NCBI GenBank assembly: GCA_040386275.1
Contig: JAZKFU010000003.1
Location: forward strand, 112,554-172,382
From: Patescibacteria group bacterium
Lineage (GTDB): Bacteria; Patescibacteriota; Minisyncoccia; Phycocordibacterales; UBA918
Reading direction: 5' to 3'
Length of the DNA: 59,829 bases
Position numbers and translations under genes: made by a program. A model generated the notes under the pieces. The model was not told the DNA's origin. It did not search any database and worked only from the letters and a program-made list of their open reading frames with translations. This document shows, one piece after another, positions 3,486 through 58,960 of this stretch; within the stretch, counting starts at the first letter, position 1, and every line of letters begins with the position of its first letter.

Positions 3486-4963
3486 TTAGTCAAAGTATAG
3501 TCCATGTCGTACCGTAACCGGTAGACGTAGACATGCACATCACGAGAAAATTCTAGACTCTCTTCACGGTCAAAAGTAGCATCAAAATAACTTTTGATGG
3601 AATCTTCATACCCTTGATCATAACTTAACACTAAATATAATCGTTCATGCGTTCCGGCAATAGCCGCCACCTCATTGGGCAAATTATCGATATCAAAGTC
3701 AGGAATAATTTTTTCGGTATTACGATTCCATTGCGGTAAGGTGGTGATTTTTGCCGGGCCAGTGTAATAATATAAAATCGGATACACAATAAATGGTGCT
3801 GATACTACGACGATATCTTCTCCACCCACAGCCGAACTTAAATACGAACTAGCCGCACTATAGTTTTCCTTATTAGGCGTATCTGGAGATTTTAACTGCA
3901 CCACCAACCCTAGTGCCATACACAGAACTAAGGTTGTCTTGTAGAAAAATGCGGCGGTAGGTGCGTAGACATCTCCTAACCGAGCAATCAAAAGAAACAG
4001 GGGCGGTAACACAATAATCAAGTACCGACTTAAAAATAACGGTTGGTACAATACACTAATCAGATACGCGCATAGTAGCGGGACCAGTGTAGCTACCCAC
4101 AAAAATCGTGTCTCAGGTCGGGGGGCGCTTTTTTTATTAAGCCCTAAAAATAAGAGCACTAGAAGGATGGGCCAGCACGCCAAAATAATACTGTTAATAG
4201 CATCAACTTGAAAGCCAAAAAAGAAATTTGAAAATACGTTAAAAATATCAATACTCGTTGGTGGATTTAAAATTGGCTGTGACTCCTCCACCCCTTCCCC
4301 ACTAAACACTTTAAGTAACCAGGGCAAAAAAGCAGCAATCACTAAGAGTACAATTGCTAAAAACGGGAGCAGTTGTCCTTGTGTAAAATTTTTGCGCATC
4401 GTCCCAAAAAAGAATACAAAGTGTGAGAGTAAAACGAGAAAGAAAAAGTAGTGGGTATAAATTCCTAAAAGACAACACACCGCGTACGCCCACCACGTTA
4501 GCGTGGTTGGTTCACGCATGAGCCTGAGGTAGAAAAAATGAACGAGAATGGTTACTAAAATCAACATCGTGTACATTCTAATTTCGCTACTGAACCACAC
4601 CAAAAATGGTGAGATGCCGTACAGTGTCGTTGCAAAAAAGGCGGTATTCCGTCCGTAAATATATGCTCCCAGCCCATAAAAAACCGGCACCGAAATAAGA
4701 TAAAACACAAATGAGAACGCTCGACTAATGAAAATTGAATTATCAAACACTACTTGTACGCCATGCACTAACAAGTGATACAACGGCACGTGAACATTTT
4801 GTGAAAGTGAAATTAGTAGTTCTCGAATCGAGAAACTGGTTTGCCATAAACTTTGTGACTCATCAAGACGTATTGATAACGGCAGGCTGTAATTGATAAA
4901 TACCCACACCGCCAAAAGCTGCAGGAACATAATCCAGAGGTAATGTTTATCAAATGATTTCAT
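3482..4963 (-). CDS. GT-C fold membrane glycosyltransferase (GT39/PMT_2/ArnT-like)
   Basis: SIRLDESQS (DE motif in first loop), HVPLYH, SPFLVWFSSEIRMY, LGIYTHYFF, many TM helices. Confidence 0.85.
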   Translation of the reverse strand: MKSFDKHYLWIMFLQLLAVWVFINYSLPLSIRLDESQSLWQTSFSIRELLISLSQNVHVPLYHLLVHGVQVVFDNSIFISRAFSFVFYLISVPVFYGLGAYIYGRNTAFFATTLYGISPFLVWFSSEIRMYTMLILVTILVHFFYLRLMREPTTLTWWAYAVCCLLGIYTHYFFFLVLLSHFVFFFGTMRKNFTQGQLLPFLAIVLLVIAAFLPWLLKVFSGEGVEESQPILNPPTSIDIFNVFSNFFFGFQVDAINSIILACWPILLVLLFLGLNKKSAPRPETRFLWVATLVPLLCAYLISVLYQPLFLSRYLIIVLPPLFLLIARLGDVYAPTAAFFYKTTLVLCMALGLVVQLKSPDTPNKENYSAASSYLSSAVGGEDIVVVSAPFIVYPILYYYTGPAKITTLPQWNRNTEKIIPDFDIDNLPNEVAAIAGTHERLYLVLSYDQGYEDSIKSYFDATFDREESLEFSRDVHVYVYRLRYDMDYTLTN

Positions 4964-20046: not shown

Positions 20047-20172
20047 GAGACCGAGGCGGGATTCGAAACTTACAGTTTCAGTACAGGTTGTCGCTACTTT
20101 TGAAAAGTAGCTGGCAACCTTTTCGAATCCCGCCACCAAAATAAAAACACCCGAGACGGGTGTTTTTATTTT
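20044..20172 (-). repeat. tRNA-Cys trailer element (terminator, inverted T-arm copy, module B, 24-bp direct repeat of tRNA 3' end)
   Basis: TTTGAGACCGAGGCGGGATTCGAA at 20044-20067 and 20170-20193; TTCGAATCCCGCC inverted copy at 20122-20134. Confidence 0.85.
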
Positions 20173-38015: not shown

Positions 38016-38022
38016 CACCAGT

Positions 38023-38060
38023 ATAAAAGGACCAGAAGCTAACGCTTCTGGTCCTTTTTA
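38023..38060. terminator. intrinsic terminator
   Basis: TAAAAGGACCAGAAGC-TAAC-GCTTCTGGTCCTTTTTA. Confidence 0.8.
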
Positions 38061-38118
38061 CATTTTAATCAGAATTTCTTGCACAATTAGGTGATAAATG
38101 TTATTGTTCTGCCCACAT

Positions 38119-40750: not shown

Positions 40751-42001
40751 ATGGAACAAATTAAATCAGACGTAGAATCTTTTGCGCGCATCCGCGTTGT
40801 CGGTGCCGGAGGTTCTGGAAACAATGCCGTCAACTACATGGTTGGCGCCAAAGTGAAGGGTGTCGAGTTCATCGCCATCAACAGTGATGCGCAAGATTTG
40901 CATCACTCACTCGCTAAGAAGAAAATTCACATCGGGAAAAACTTAACCCGCGGTCTTGGTGCTGGGGGAAACCCCGACATGGGACGACGAGCTGCTGAAG
41001 AAACTCGTGAAGAAATTAATAACGCAATCAAAGGATCAGACATGATCTTTATTACCTGTGGTATGGGTGGCGGTACCGGAACTGGTGCTGCTCCCGTGAT
41101 TGCAAAAATTGCTCGCGATAGTGGAGCATTAACTGTTGGCGTCGTCACCAAGCCATTTCTGTTTGAAGGTCAAGAACGAATGCGTTTAGCATTACAAGGT
41201 ATTGAAGAACTCAAGAAAGAAGTTGATGCCTTGATCATCATTCCTAACGATCGCTTACTTGCTATCGTTGATAAAGAAACTACTGTTCAAAATGCGTTCC
41301 AACAATGTGACAATGTTTTGAAACAAGCGGTTGAAGGTATCTCTGACTTAATCACCATGCCCGGTATCATCAACGTCGACTTCGCCGACATCCGTTCCGT
41401 CATGGAAAATGCCGGATCAGCGTTAATGGGTGTAGGAGTATCAACTGGTGAAAAGCGGGCGGAAGAAGCAGCACAAGCCGCCATCAATTCCCCACTTCTA
41501 GAAGTATCAATCACCGGAGCAAAAGGTGTACTGTTTGCAATCGCTGGTGGTGATGATCTAGGAATGCTCGAGATTCAAGATGCCGCTCGAGTAATCACCG
41601 AATCAATTGACCCTCAAGCCCGCGTAATATTCGGAGCTATCAAAGATGAGAAGCTCAAGAAAAATGAAATCAAGGTAACAGTGATTGCCACTGGCTTCCC
41701 GGAAGAAATGGGATCACACAACGCCACCATTTCTCGTCGTGCTCCCGTAGCCCAACCTGAACCAATGGTGATGGAAGAAGAACGAGTACCAGAATCACGT
41801 GGACGCATCTTCAATTCTCTCGGCGGACCACGTCGCGCTGAAGTAGAAGAGGTAGCCGTAAGTGCCCCTCCCCGAGTAGAAACCATGGAACCAAAACCCG
41901 AACTCCCAAGACGCGACCCTAAACCAGTAGATGTGATTGATGAAGAAGAGGACGACTGGGGTGCCGTACCAGCTTTTTTGCGACGATCAAAATTGAAATA
42001 A
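40751..42001 (+). CDS. ftsZ: cell division protein FtsZ
   Basis: GGGTGTG tubulin motif, INVDFAD, C-terminal VPAFLRR. Confidence 0.98.
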
Positions 42002-42020
42002 TTTTGTTCGTACAAAATAA

Positions 42021-42155
42021 GCTGGTACGGCAAGACGGATCGATGTGAGTCGCCCCTTTCCTAGGGCGACGAAGCAGACCGTCGGGGTCGCGAACACTTA
42101 GTAGATTATGAGTATAACGAAATAATATACTTAGTGATTCGTGACCAGTGCCAGC
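42021..42155 (+). repeat. module-A structured element downstream of ftsZ
   Basis: AGACGGA..ATGT...GTCGGGGTCG..AACACTTAGTA...ATACTTAGTGATTCGTGACC, flanked by GCTGGTAC/GTGCCAGC. Confidence 0.8.
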
Positions 42156-42282
42156 ATTCTCTAAAACTAACTAACATTTCCACCTTTAAAACCCCGGCTT
42201 CGGCCGGGTTTTTTGTTGGGTATAACCCCCCTATTCAAAACATGGTAAACTACTCATCACTTAGCAATTTTCAGTTTTTGAT

Positions 42283-44272: not shown

Positions 44273-44278
44273 CTTTTT

Positions 44279-44442
44279 AAAATACCATCCAAGATGGTTA
44301 TTTTATTATGCGGAACGGGAGTCAGTGATTCAGTATCACTGACGTGAGATTCGAAGCTGTTGCCAGCTCTATTGGGAGTTAACGAATCAATAGAGCGACA
44401 ACGGGTACTGAAGCTGTAGGCTTCGAATCTCACCGTTTCCGC
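44279..44442 (+). repeat. tRNA-Ser trailer element (terminator, inverted 3'-strand copy split by 26-nt hairpin, module B, direct copy)
   Basis: GCGGAACGGG[44320-44345]GAGATTCGAAG ... CTTCGAATCTCACCGTTTCCGC (44421-44442). Confidence 0.88.
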
Positions 44443-44642: not shown

Positions 44643-44845
44643 CAGAGGCAAAACAAAAATACACCCCTTAGTTAAGGGGTGTATTTTTGTTTTAGAAAGC
44701 AAAGAGTTTTGCTTTCGGCCTCTGTGATAGACGGAGTCATGTTTTTCCTCTCCCTGGAGAAAAAACAGACGAGTCGGGGTCGAGAACACTTAGTATAATT
44801 TGTACGAAGTGCAATATTATACTTAGTGATTCGTGACCACACAGA
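44643..44845 (+). repeat. tRNA-Glu trailer element (long palindrome, 24-nt bulged hairpin, module A)
   Basis: Hairpin 44694-44717; module A 44729-44838. Confidence 0.85.
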
Positions 44846-45000
44846 CACATATGCAAAGTTCGTTTAGAACTTTTCAATTTGATCCCACAAGCAACAGTAT
44901 TACTACACCGTTACGTAAAAATCAACACCTAATTAGGACCACGGCATTATACTTTGATACTCCGCCAACTACCCTTAGCAGACTTTGATATACTGGTACC

Positions 45001-50052: not shown

Positions 50053-50244
50053 CAAAATTAAAACGCCCCTAAAGGGCGTTTTAATTTTGTGCGAAATAAG
50101 TATTGTGCCTGCGCACAATACGTCGGGGCTCGAAAAGCGGAGCGATGTTTTGGCTATTCCTAATGCCAAAACCGCGAGCTGTGTCCCGCGGCACTTATGA
50201 GCGTCAGCGAATTTGTGACCGTCAGGACAAGTCCTGTACTCTAC
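50053..50244 (+). repeat. tRNA-Val trailer element (25-bp-arm palindrome, 25-nt hairpin, inverted T-arm copy, variant module A)
   Basis: Arms 50044-50068/50074-50098; hairpin 50099-50123; CGGGGCTCGAA 50124-50134. Confidence 0.85.
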
Positions 50245-56849: not shown

Positions 56850-57551
56850 TTAACTTGTTGTAGTTTGAGCTGCATTTAAAGATTTTGATTGAGTCATGAC
56901 ATTAGAAATATGTTCATGGGGCGAAATTTCAACGGTTTGACAAAGGTAAGATAATTTTCCAATTGCCATGAGCAGACGTTGCTGACTGATAACAGGAGTA
57001 CCATAGGACTTTATATTTTCTACCAGCTCATGAGCATATACTACATTTTTAATCCTCTCTGTTTTAAAAACACCTGAGCCGGTAAATACTACCAAGTTAA
57101 TAAAATTTTCCTCTACAAACGGCATTAATTTTTTTAAAGTTTCAACGTGCCCATAATTTTGCCACAACGGATTTCTTAAAATAAATTTCTTTCCGGTTAA
57201 ATACCTTGCTGTCCACTTTTCATTACTTTTACTTCCAAAAATCCAACCTGAACTGTCTTTGGTTTCTATCACAAAAATACCAAATCGTGACACTACTACA
57301 TGATCTATTTCGGTTGAGGTTGAATGGGATGATGGCAATATCAAATTATTATAAATAAAATATTCATTATGATTTAAACCTTCAGCCAATATCCTCACCA
57401 CCCTTCTTTCTGAGTCGTTTAAATTTTCAGCATAGCATCTATGTCCATGACCGGAATATATAGTACGTTTTGTAAAAAAAATATTTTTATTAGCACTTTT
57501 AACAAGTAGGTAGAGGGAAAGAATGATTATTAAACTAACAACAATATTCAT
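56850..57551 (-). CDS. NERD (nuclease-related) domain protein with N-terminal TM
   Basis: TEIDHVVVSRFGIFVIETKD.SGWIFG, RNPLWQNYGHV. Confidence 0.9.
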   Translation of the reverse strand: MNIVVSLIIILSLYLLVKSANKNIFFTKRTIYSGHGHRCYAENLNDSERRVVRILAEGLNHNEYFIYNNLILPSSHSTSTEIDHVVVSRFGIFVIETKDSSGWIFGSKSNEKWTARYLTGKKFILRNPLWQNYGHVETLKKLMPFVEENFINLVVFTGSGVFKTERIKNVVYAHELVENIKSYGTPVISQQRLLMAIGKLSYLCQTVEISPHEHISNVMTQSKSLNAAQTTTS

Positions 57552-57603
57552 ATATTTAATATGATAGCAGTGGATGGAGATGATCTGGTGTATTTGTGTA
57601 CAC

Positions 57604-57937
57604 GGTCGGGTGCTTGAGGGCAGGCTCGGTCACGAGTTACTAAGTATATTTGTGCATTGCGTGCAAATTCTACTAGGTGTTCTCGACCCGAGAAACAGTG
57701 CCTAAACACTGTTTCTCCCGCTGTTTCGGCTCTAGGAAGAGCCAAAACATGCCTGTGCCTTTCGTTTCTTACAGAAACTGTATACCTTGTCGCTACTTTT
57801 ACATTTCATTCCAAAGTAGCTGGCAAGGTCTTGCAGAGTGACATTGGGTCACTCTTCACCCGCACGTAACTGACATTGGTCAGTTGCTCCCCAAGCACCG
57901 GGTACAGAAATAGCCCCTTGCGGGGCTTTCTGTACGC
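57604..57937 (-). repeat. tRNA-Phe trailer element containing the 25-nt hairpin, module B and module A plus a distal direct copy of the tRNA 3' end
   Basis: Hairpin 57864-57888; module B 57761-57830; module A 57628-57760; GGTGCTTGAGGGCAGGCTC (57609-57627) versus tRNA GGTGCTTGGGGGCGGGCTC (17/19). Confidence 0.88.
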
Positions 57938-58012
57938 GGTGCTTGGGGGCGGGCTCGAACCGCCGACCCCTTCCTCTTCAGGGAAATGCTCTACCAACTG
58001 AGCTACCCAAGC
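57938..58012 (-). tRNA. tRNA-Phe(GAA)
   Basis: Reverse complement GCTTGGGTAGCTCAGTTGGTAGAGCATTTCCCTGAAGAGGAAGGGGTCGGCGGTTCGAGCCCGCCCCCAAGCACC. Confidence 0.95.
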
Positions 58013-58109
58013 GTGCTGTGGCGGACTATGATGGCTTTTGACCTTCTTAGAACGTACCCGCCATTGTACCTGTTTCTTGATTTATTTCAACCAAATATCA
58101 AGGCATGTT

Positions 58110-58403
58110 CTACTGCTGTCCCTGATAGATTTTTAACGCTTCCTGGAGAAGTTCGTAGTTACTCGTACTTTGGGTCTCAGTGCCTCCAAAATTGCTCATA
58201 AAGGCATTGTAGAGGTAATAGTAGGCAAAGAGTGGTAAGCCGAGCAATACCACGTACCAGGCGATTTTAAACCAAAATTGCCGAATCTCCCTGCGGTCAA
58301 TTTTTTGTAATAATTCGTGATTAGCTACGAGCAACTCATGGTTTGCCTTGGTAAGCTCTAGAATGGTTTCTGCCTCTTGTTTTTCCGGTAATTCTGGATT
58401 CAT
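58110..58403 (-). CDS. small single-TM hypothetical protein
   Basis: ILELTKANHELL..I.RR...WFKIAWYVVLLGLP. Confidence 0.7.
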   Translation of the reverse strand: MNPELPEKQEAETILELTKANHELLVANHELLQKIDRREIRQFWFKIAWYVVLLGLPLFAYYYLYNAFMSNFGGTETQSTSNYELLQEALKIYQGQQ

Positions 58404-58449
58404 ATCAATACAGTATAGCAGAGGAAATTATGCTAAAATGCCCGCACTT

Positions 58450-58521
58450 GCCCACATAGCTCAATGGATAGAGCTACTCCGTCCTAAGGAGAGGATCCTG
58501 GTTCGATTCCGGGTGCGGGCA
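58450..58521 (+). tRNA. tRNA-Arg(CCT)
   Basis: GCCCACA TA GCTC AATGGATA GAGC T ACTCC GTCCTAA GGAGA GGAT CCTGG TTCGATT CCGGG TGCGGGC A; A5.C68 mismatch. Confidence 0.9.
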
Positions 58522-58704
58522 CATTGATGCAAACTAATAAACACTCTTCAAAAAGAAGAGTGTTTATTAGTTTAGCAAGCAACCTGCGTTGCTTGCGGGC
58601 ATCAATGTGAGACGGAGTCATGTTTTCTCCTCCTTCCTAGAGGAGGAAACAGACGAGTCCGGTGAGGAAGTTCTTATGAGTGTCAGCGAATTAGAAACTT
58701 GACC
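58522..58704 (+). repeat. tRNA-Arg trailer element (long palindrome, 25-nt hairpin, module A variant)
   Basis: Hairpin 58574-58598; AGACGGAGTCATGT at 58610; TTATGAGTGTCAGCGAATT shared with the Val element. Confidence 0.85.
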
Positions 58705-58723
58705 CCAAATTCGAATGTTCTAG

Positions 58724-58960
58724 CTACGCTGCCAACAACTCTTTAACCTTTGCTTCGTCAAACCCCACTACAAGGTCATCACCAATACGGATTACTGGTA
58801 CGCCCATTTGACCACTGAGGTCTACCATTTCGGCTCGCTTATCCATGTCACTGGCTACATCATGCTCAGTAAAAGCAATATTATTTTCTGCAAAAAAATC
58901 CTTTGCCATATGACAGAAGTGGCAGACGGGAGTGCTGTAGATGGTTACTGTTTTGTCCAT
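58724..58960 (-). CDS. glutaredoxin-like (NrdH/YruB family) redoxin
   Basis: VTIYSTPVCHFC, GQMGVPVI. Confidence 0.92.
   Translation of the reverse strand: MDKTVTIYSTPVCHFCHMAKDFFAENNIAFTEHDVASDMDKRAEMVDLSGQMGVPVIRIGDDLVVGFDEAKVKELLAA

Follow-up and report, generated by a model that had tools for sequence, protein, structure and literature searches.

The DNA downstream of the tRNA-Phe(GAA) gene in a 59,829-nucleotide (nt) stretch of a Patescibacteria genome (contig JAZKFU010000003.1; the whole stretch is hereafter the window) probably represents a nested or serial composite of small insertion elements, the reading that we favor for the family to which its parts belong. This family is large, spread through the ultra-small Patescibacteria (the candidate phyla radiation, CPR), and apparently undescribed. 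Its units share one order of parts: the 3' segment of a gene from a fixed point onward (X1), a hairpin loop, an inverted copy of that segment (X'), a module of type A or B, and then a second, direct copy of the segment (X3). X, loop, and X' together form a long terminator-like palindrome, and X' is usually split by a 25-nt AG..GT hairpin located 8-10 nt before the module. Unit size is 120-190 nt, uniformly across phyla, and the duplicated segment spans 10-45 nt, starting at the insertion point and running past the end of the gene. The same layout follows seven of the nine tRNA genes in the window (Cys, Leu-TAA, Ser, Glu, Val, Phe, and Arg) and recurs within ftsZ; that is, the window holds seven further copies besides the tRNA-Phe trailer, six after tRNAs and one in ftsZ.

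The tRNA-Phe trailer (57604-57937, described on the minus strand, in tRNA orientation) illustrates the layout in an elaborate form. The gene itself (57938-58012; ARAGORN; 67.6 bits for the Rfam tRNA model) has a promoter-like TTGAAA-16-TACAAT at 58090-58063, and its last 20 nt, from T-loop C56 to the 3' end (CGAGCCCGCCCCCAAGCACC, 57938-57957), constitute X1, the functional copy of the duplicated segment. The terminator-like palindrome GTACAGAAAGCCCC-GCAA-GGGGCTATTTCTGTAC (57902-57935), for which a terminator scan reports AGCCCCGCAAGGGGCT and ATTTCTGT, forms the center of the long X1/X' inverted repeat, and this terminator is also present in the related loci L124 and L134. The first part of X' (X'a, CCGGTGCTTGGGG, 57889-57901) is an antisense copy of the acceptor 3' strand; with the palindrome, it makes a 22-nt inverted repeat that is 95% complementary to 57927-57948 and extends into the tRNA. 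The 25-nt hairpin, which we term hp2 (AGCAACTGAC-CAAT-GTCAGTTACGT, or AG-CAACTGAC-CAAT-GTCAGTTAC-GT, 57864-57888), interrupts X' at its usual distance of 8-10 nt ahead of the module; it recurs in L124 with one difference, and homologous AG..GT hairpins, often with a CTGC loop, occupy the equivalent spot in many other loci as well as in the elements after Leu, Ser, and Val. The pentamer GCGGG (57859-57863) is what is left of X'b, the inverted copy of the T-stem 3' strand, which is intact in L065 (GTGCGGGCTTG followed by AAAGG) and L134 (GTGCGGTCTCG followed by AAAGA); its remainder (CTCG) has, judging from these alignments, been displaced by module B.

Module B is here in a long form of three pieces (57764-57858): a 5' extension with the hairpin AGAGTGAC-CCAAT-GTCACTCT (57827-57858), the core TTGCCAGC..GCGACAA (57787-57826), and a 3' part with a GTTTC-TGTAA-GAAAC hairpin (57764-57786). 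It is recognized by nhmmer at E = 3.8e-12, and its core pattern occurs three times in the window (after Cys, Ser, and Phe), against 0.00 expected; chance expectations for the motif searches in the window were 0.00-0.07. Module A follows (57629-57763, of the A1 type), found by motif search and by covariance model R1 (45.8 bits, E = 1e-9; the match includes a 75-nt insertion in helix P2). It comprises the joining segment J1/2 with P2a (GAAAGGCACAGGCATG, 57748-57763), the P2 hairpin (57723-57747), an extra inserted hairpin GAGAAACAGTG/CACTGTTTCTC, in full GGAGAAACAGTG..CACTGTTTCTC (57690-57718), and the long P3 hairpin terminating in TACTTAGTAACTCGTGAC (57629-57689). The trailer closes with X3 (CGAGCCTGCCCTCAAGCACC, 57609-57628), a direct copy of the tRNA from T-loop to 3' end, and this copy is the displaced old gene end.

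All of the features that the initial annotation had listed for this trailer (palindrome, antisense copy, 25-nt hairpin, GCGGG, second hairpin, B, A with its hairpin, direct copy) are thus in place, with some changes in how they are to be read. The direct copy, previously counted as 17/19 identical, is 18/20 by our alignment. The “second related hairpin” exists but is not a separate insertion, as it takes the place of the hairpin found in longer B modules (those of L032 and L119, whose 5' extension GGGTGAGAA-[hairpin]-TTCGCAAGAGG is homologous to that of the Phe module B). The extra hairpin of module A likewise exists and is found again in the L006 tRNA-Glu unit, which makes it a trait of a subfamily. 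The arrangement is also unlikely to be an assembly chimera, since an independent Logan contig of 4717 nt spans 57200-58007 with zero differences and L124 carries the same B-containing arrangement at ~95% identity. The situation that would have undone the proposed linkage, in which A and B never co-occur elsewhere and their junction is chimeric, is therefore not what we find: the modules co-occur elsewhere, and the independent contig is identical.

What the units have in common, beyond the target-derived X segments, is best seen in module A. The covariance model R1 was built from 62 copies, namely 60 copies from other genomes plus the window Leu and Glu copies, with the Phe copy excluded. The alignment describes a three-way junction in which P1 is formed by X' pairing with the X that follows the module and J1/2 is AAA. 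P2 consists of GNC, an internal loop of G-N-A opposite G-A, and NNN with a variable hairpin, and it is followed by J2/3, GGG(G). P3 is a long irregular hairpin with the invariant, near-self-complementary ACUUAGUA / UACUUAGU (the ACUUAGU/ACUUAGU region), and the module ends in UCGUGAC. Double compensatory changes occur in 19 of the 28 pairs; 93% of cells are paired, versus 71% in column shuffles (0/500 reach the observed value) and 32-39% with slid partners; and the covariation score is 0.56, versus 0.17 in shuffles. Module A thus has the compensatory-change-supported secondary structure that generally marks a structured RNA. These changes show that one strand folds, as RNA or as single-stranded DNA alike. 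In P2 and P3, G-U pairs (18) outnumber A-C mismatches (6), and hence the folding strand should be the tRNA-sense strand. Module B is different, being made of a long hairpin and an N5-TGTAA-N5' hairpin.

A conserved scaffold with a target-complementary 8-13 nt directly 5' of it, and target-identical sequence directly 3', also invites comparison with a guide-type RNA, in which X' (and possibly X3) would be a programmable segment directing a trans-encoded nuclease or recombinase, with RNA-guided homing of an open reading frame (ORF)-less passenger as the outcome. The tandem-GA type of internal loop in P2 is of a kind that binds proteins, the insertion point is fixed relative to the module type, and RNA-guided systems have been reported in CPR (PMC12045711). 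We nonetheless consider this explanation improbable. None of the ~170 copies adjoins a gene for TnpB, IscB, IS110, or Tas, and the window has none; the module has no Rfam match and no promoter, X3 decays and so is not retained as a guide, and X' is tied up with X1 in a long hairpin. TIGR-Tas systems in particular were set aside because the published ones are arrays with an adjacent Tas gene, a different architecture.

The A1 module runs from AAAG.. to ..GTGAC, with X' ending in ..TTCG and X beginning with CGAATCC, which places the insertion point between T-loop positions 55 and 56. The point is fixed for each module type: B units insert before T54 (their X begins two nt earlier), A1 units before C56, and A2 units one or two nt further on. 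Units of a second class, such as those of Glu and Arg in the window, use the tRNA 3' end, ahead of C72-A73-C. In ftsZ, the point falls between the codons for ..W-G-A and V-P-A-F-L-R-R.., with duplication of the last 11 codons. The bases on the 5' side of the point vary (GGTT, GGAT, GGTG, CTC, GCG), the two ends of the module (AAAG.. and ..GTGAC) do not form an inverted repeat, and the X'/X repeat that flanks it is particular to each target gene. Every young copy has a long direct repeat, and the conserved module cores are intact in old copies.

Direct repeats of the tRNA T-loop-to-3' end, tandem accretion, and two sublocations (T-loop and 3' end) that are reportedly the classical ones for tyrosine integrases in tRNA genes could also be explained if the inserts were decayed relics of integrase-borne islands at tRNA att sites, with the module as an attP arm. 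This origin, similar to that of cis-mobilizable elements (CIMEs), appears very remote. No integrase or other ORF, intact or broken, is present in any copy, and the size of the inserts is uniform across phyla. Three-way-junction covariation of the RNA style is unexpected for attP arms, the obligatory X' has no role in duplex att recombination, and more than 34 targets would demand as many attP variants. Further, no module was found in IMG/VR, phage, or plasmid collections; the only three IMG/VR matches were chance ones inside a collagen-like ORF. A phage or plasmid origin was rejected for the same reason.

Evidence for insertion as an event comes from orthologous tRNA-Phe sites. With the HSP20 gene beside tRNA-Phe as a query, we retrieved 80 metagenome loci (designated here, like the loci of the other copies, by L numbers), and tRNA-Phe was syntenic in 46 of them. 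Among these 46, 13 had no copy of X downstream (empty or remnant), 24 had one direct copy, ~160-200 nt from the tRNA end, and five had two, with spacings and arrays of up to ~460 nt. Empty sites with ordinary terminators were seen in L150, L164, L158, L172, L191, L198, and L201, and stubs or remnants in L168, L200, and L125. Repeated insertion at one target, as previously suggested for this trailer, is therefore supported by the coexistence of empty sites, single elements, and arrays at the orthologous site and with serial arrays of two or three units elsewhere (L006, L021, L050, L069, L074, and L091). The description of the trailer as the longest form holds inside the window only, as orthologous tRNA-Phe trailers reach 390-460 nt.

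Two units that recur at the tRNA-Phe site show how such arrays are ordered. The “W” unit of the window (terminator ACAGAAAGCCCCGCAAGGGGCTATTTCTGT) is found again in L124 and L134, and a “K” unit (terminator AAATAGCCGAC..GTTGCTATTT, with an uninterrupted X') in approximately ten loci. Both retain their own terminators wherever they are placed. Their order is opposite in the two arrays, L134 reading tRNA-[W]-[K]-X3 and L124 reading tRNA-[K]-[W]-X3. Thus, the insertions were independent, each entering beside the gene and pushing older units outward. The same outward-pushing logic accounts for L006 (tRNA-Glu), L022, L050 (tmRNA), L091, and L021.

These observations also bear on whether the units might instead be host-beneficial 3' modules (a terminator, insulator, processing or stability signal, or tRNA 3'-end decoy) that descend vertically and are reshuffled by ordinary recombination. 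In favor of this, the X1/X' hairpin could plausibly act as an intrinsic terminator, cores are intact in old copies, seven of nine tRNAs carry a unit, and the window and L006 still share orthologous units at a flank identity of only 70-78%. Even so, empty orthologous sites with ordinary terminators are common, stacked arrays differ in order between relatives, three interchangeable module types occupy the same position, the same module lies in ftsZ codons, and the remnants in L168, L200, and L125 represent loss without replacement. On balance, a purely host-serving role strikes us as quite unlikely.

The history of the window composite can be partly reconstructed on the insertion reading. L134 has a W unit with an intact X'b (GTGCGGTCTCG followed by AAAGACGG..) and no module B, and the syntenic L065 likewise carries A1 only. 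In the window, B is located between GTGCGGG and the G that precedes AAAGG, inside the antisense T-loop of X'b. L124, the closest relative at the tRNA-Phe locus (HSP20 91% identical), matches the window at ~95% through the right arm of the terminator, X'a, hp2, GCGGG, and all of B up to ..CTGTAAGAAACGAAAG; from the first base of module A onward, the similarity breaks down, as P2 is different in L124 and the 3' domain there is of the A2 type rather than A1 with the extra hairpin. From these comparisons, we conclude that the B-containing composite was inherited and is not an assembly artefact, that B was added to an A unit that predates it (B being absent in L065 and L134 and shared with L124), and that the A module behind B was exchanged as a cassette. 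Growth of the structure by addition, as the initial annotation had it, is supported, as L065 and L134 carry the same kind of A unit without B and L124 carries the composite plus a further element beside the tRNA.

The physical linkage of A and B is not peculiar to the window, as the two share one trailer in at least nine other loci; a search for further composites returned L004, L022, L032, L062, L063, L093, L101, L107, and L119. Their junctions differ. A and B are serial units in L022 and L004, B lies inside P2 in L032 and between J2/3 and P3 in L119 (with similar fusions in L062, L063, and L093), and the window composite has B ahead of the 5' part of A. This variety implies that composites arose independently and argues against a single full-length progenitor. 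The suggestion that the trailer is such a progenitor, or a pointer to an autonomous element, finds no support either in the search for longer, ORF-containing versions, of which there are none among 122 motif-selected copies and the 46 tRNA-Phe trailers; modules A and B on their own outnumber composites by far. One locus departs from the usual layout: in L107 (2230-2800, minus strand), the complete tRNA is preceded by a truncated duplicate of its 5' two-thirds, the T-loop of which contains a B unit, so that the 5' rather than the 3' part of the gene is duplicated.

Which part of a unit is new was addressed with ftsZ. The ftsZ member (41964-42157, plus strand; R1 100.9 bits) lies in the last 11 codons, with X1 as the coding 3' end, X' as a 33-nt inverted copy, an A1 module, and a decayed X3. 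Compared with L099, the flanks are 96-98% identical, and exactly the block of X1, loop, X', and module is only ~75% identical. Within X1, ten codons show nine synonymous differences that leave the peptide unchanged, and X' has the matching compensatory changes; identity returns at GTGACC, immediately before X3. On the strength of this comparison, the exchangeable unit is [X1-loop-X'-module], and X3 is the displaced old end. An alternative unit, [terminator-X'-module-X] inserted after the gene, is ruled out by the same site, where X1 diverged but X3 is conserved. Family-wide, the better pairing partner of X' is X1 in 12 cases and X3 in one, with seven ties; X3 is often degenerate. The 12-to-1 count also led us to reject, as a general rule, the maintenance of X3 as a pairing partner of X', although the Ser unit has one such compensatory pair, in that its X'b GTGAG pairs with CTCAC of X3 and not with CTCCC of the tRNA.

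The ftsZ site is also occupied in L006, L057, L071, L097, and L099 (Kaiserbacteria and Nomurabacteria-like genomes). Across the stop codon, a 33-bp hairpin would form at the mRNA end of the element-bearing gene, and the conserved FtsZ C-terminal peptide is encoded by the element-borne copy. Separately, L099 has ~660 extra bases (4211-4874, versus window 38017-38062) with a small opposite-strand ORF; these are unrelated to the family.

The remaining members in the window follow tRNA genes. R1 finds six window copies (Leu, Glu, ftsZ, Phe, Val, and Arg), every one on the tRNA-sense strand. The A1-type units after tRNA-Leu(TAA) (20894-21091, plus strand, inserted in the T-loop; 122.5 bits) and tRNA-Glu (44644-44850, plus strand, at the tRNA 3' end; 112.9 bits) score high partly by construction, as both copies were included in the model. 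The L006 tRNA-Glu carries the orthologous unit and a newer one in the T-loop. The A2-type units after tRNA-Val (50054-50241, plus strand; 3' domain CTTATGAGCGTCAGCGAATT..GTGACCGTCAGGAC; 26.3 bits, E = 9e-5) and at the 3' end of tRNA-Arg(CCT) (58523-58719, plus strand; 24.6 bits, E = 2e-4) score lower. The B-type units follow tRNA-Cys (20047-20172, minus strand), with a perfect 22-nt X3 (22/22) and then a second terminator that is probably the original one, and tRNA-Ser (44274-44442, plus strand; X3 21/22), for which L006 carries an orthologous but diverged unit. The surrounding window is ordinary chromosome by Pfam annotation, with genes for FtsA/FtsZ, gyrase, IF-2, aminoacyl-tRNA synthetases, and TsaD. 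An initial candidate context of cyanobacterial small dispersed repeats or a group I intron was rejected, given that the window encodes FtsA and FtsZ and that all relatives are Patescibacteria.

Beyond the window, a 19-mer at the 3' end of module A (TACTTAGTRAYTSGTGACC) matched at least 118 stretches in reference genomes, nearly all of them Patescibacteria metagenome-assembled genomes (MAGs). Carriers among the matches listed include Saccharibacteria, Paceibacterota, Kaiser-, Yonath-, Nomura-, and Lloydbacteria, and Minisyncoccia, and every carrier is a MAG or metagenome contig. For 79 of the 122 copies, a co-oriented tRNA is located 105-510 nt upstream, with 34 anticodons represented; among the remainder, some follow tmRNA or the ftsZ stop codon, and many are cut by contig ends. 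MAG contigs often stop inside, or within ~300 nt of, an element (L001, L099, L004, L018, L026, L027, L055, L062, and others), and evidently, these repeats break short-read assemblies at tRNA, tmRNA, and ftsZ loci. A MAG labeled Patiriisocius sp., of the Flavobacterium family (L010), has tandem elements of typical CPR type on one contig and is probably mis-binned. The hp2 hairpin (AG-stem-loop-stem-GT; for example, 20945-20967 and 58574-58595) is conserved across phyla with a strong sense-strand preference for a CTGC loop, which some of the main palindromes share.

No machinery for movement was identified in the sequences at hand. No ORF lies inside or beside the units of the window, the 122 copies, or the 46 trailers, and Pfam annotation of the window gave no integrase, transposase, reverse transcriptase, or recombinase; no Y1 (HUH) transposase was seen there either. 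A search for a distant 5' partner, as the complement of each X3 up to 4 kb upstream of each copy, returned only random distant matches. In Rfam 15, whose models include hammerhead, hairpin, twister, pistol, hatchet, and HDV ribozymes, group I and II introns, IS605-orfB/omega-RNA, and HEARO, only the nine tRNAs of the whole window reach a gathering score, and 57400-58800 at E up to 10 gives weak chance matches only; a resemblance by eye to hammerhead and hairpin ribozymes fails, as core bases differ. Public RNA runs contained tRNA words only, or nothing, and none was usable for transcription of the element. No description of the elements was found in the open-access full-text literature, literal sequences included. 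One gene near an element, an HNH_3 ORF of 160 amino acids (20339-20821, plus strand) between the tRNA-Cys element and tRNA-Leu(TAA), with a 13-nt overlap with the tRNA start, looks like a free-standing homing-type endonuclease. As a mobilizer of the family it was rejected, since the syntenic relative L086 is the sole other locus in which it adjoins an element.

How might such units move? We tentatively propose a folded single-strand mechanism, whose probability we place well short of that of insertion itself. In this model, the moving form of the unit would be a single strand folded into a dumbbell or circle, with the 3' end of the module (GTGAC) abutting the start of X1. Pairing of X' with X1 would complete P1 and thereby rebuild the target site as a duplex next to the conserved junction, and a putative trans-acting enzyme would then recombine this duplex replica with the identical X of a naive gene, resulting in X1-loop-X'-module-X3. 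The gene would stay functional because the unit supplies its own gene end and terminator, the latter probably being the X1/X' hairpin (a prediction that rests on a consensus match). After decay of X3, loss of the unit would destroy the gene. Natural transformation and homologous recombination, with the tRNA body and X3 as arms, probably aid spread between strains and would create mosaics. This model would account for the obligatory inverted copy, for a P1 that is complete only with X1 or a fresh X3, for the fixed offset per module type, and for single-gene specificity. With respect to the acquisition of new targets, X1 together with its extension is similar to the flank originally found downstream, as far as the left arm of the old terminator (Cys, L022, and L091), which suggests that X1/X' for a new target may be acquired by fold-back copying at the terminator.

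Taken one step further, the elements may, as one speculative possibility, be ORF-less homing elements that combine a ribozyme-like or protein-recruiting three-way junction with self-carried sense and antisense copies of the target. The folded strand (RNA or single-stranded DNA) would display its own insertion site in duplex form, thereby programming site-specific insertion into the ends of essential genes (tRNA, tmRNA, and ftsZ), and the element would become indispensable by replacing the 3' end and terminator of the gene.

Several observations weigh against this picture of mobile units. The tandem units in L050 and L091 are near-identical in X1-terminator-X' and differ in their modules, a pattern that fits local copying or module swapping better than whole-unit movement. 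Mosaic boundaries could stem from homologous recombination at conserved segments rather than from site-specific cutting. The module lies behind a terminator-like hairpin with no recognizable promoter, such that an RNA role would need read-through, and folding as DNA is indistinguishable from folding as RNA. Both strands of the Phe stretch fold far more stably than shuffled sequence, with z = -11.5 for the tRNA strand and z = -14.2 for the opposite strand, which therefore folds slightly better. All of the aligned A copies were chosen by the exact 19-mer, so that conservation of that stretch is inflated by selection. Finally, no enzyme, excised form, or junction read was seen in data that consist of assembled contigs only.

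Comparison with known systems places the family near several of them and within none. Like integrative elements of tRNA and tmRNA genes, the units insert at the T-loop or 3' end, supply a replacement 3' end, leave the old end as a direct repeat, and form tandem arrays, and they share with integrase islands and CIMEs the att-like direct repeats at both ends (Phe 18/20, Cys 22/22, and Ser 21/22). Unlike those islands, they are short and ORF-less, have no integrase or remnant in or near them, and possess an obligatory inverted target copy, a covarying three-way junction, and dozens of targets per genome in addition to ftsZ. Strand-specific folded hairpins as the functional form, target choice by pairing, a single strand that can mimic a duplex site, and non-autonomous, trans-mobilized behavior link them to IS200/IS605 derivatives (palindrome-associated transposable elements, or PATEs, and REP/REPIN sequences), to the folded attP of CTX phages and of integrative mobile elements exploiting Xer (IMEX), and to integron attC sites. 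Those elements, however, have no long target duplication and no gene-end copy, use guides of ~4 nt versus 10-45 nt here, and are unrelated in module sequence and structure. PATEs and REPs lack target duplication and lie 3' of a short conserved word, whereas the units studied herein have a long direct repeat and variable 5' bases.

A conserved structured scaffold flanked by target-matching segments is shared with TnpB/IscB omega-RNA, IS110 bridge RNA, and TIGR-Tas, and class C group II introns, like these elements, settle just after terminator hairpins and use intron-exon pairing. In contrast to these RNA-guided systems and introns, our elements have no associated protein gene and no match to Rfam models (omega-RNA, HEARO, intron), their guide-like segment is the complement of sequence carried by the element itself, and a direct repeat of the target is present. 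Miniature inverted-repeat transposable elements (MITEs) and intergenic repeats (Correia, ERIC, RUP, BOX, and Rickettsia palindromic elements) are similarly small, ORF-less, multi-copy, and structured, often act as terminators, and break assemblies. Unlike MITEs, the units have no conserved terminal inverted repeats, no short target duplication of fixed length, and no parent insertion sequence, and their flanks are target-derived and gene-specific. Classified by these comparisons, the elements are non-autonomous, site-specific insertion elements that do not qualify as members of MITEs, integrase islands and CIMEs, PATEs and REPs, omega- and bridge RNAs, and every Rfam family. That their mechanism is categorically new is a real possibility, even if the odds are against it.

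Two further features of the window lie apart from the family. Three adjacent small ORFs (25149-26894, minus strand) match the type IV secretion system pilin family PF18895, and a gene for a solute-binding protein adjoins them. The tRNA-Leu(UAA) gene (20809-20893) is intron-free, and all nine window tRNA genes end in ..A-C without an encoded CCA; this agrees with the report that many CPR RNase P RNAs are without a CCA-binding motif (PMC8172020).

Patescibacteria genomes are ~1 Mb and have little spare DNA, yet most tRNA genes in the window bear at least one unit. If the elements are mobile, they would be a major, hitherto unannotated constituent of CPR genomes, one that breaks assemblies at tRNA, tmRNA, and ftsZ loci, supplies the terminators of essential genes, and rewrites the last codons of ftsZ. 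The combination of a conserved junction, sense and antisense target copies, and replacement of the gene end suggests a route by which an element without any ORF could be both site-specific and hard to lose, and it offers a candidate programmable recognition module. The family also supplies a convenient marker for strain-level recombination in uncultured CPR populations.

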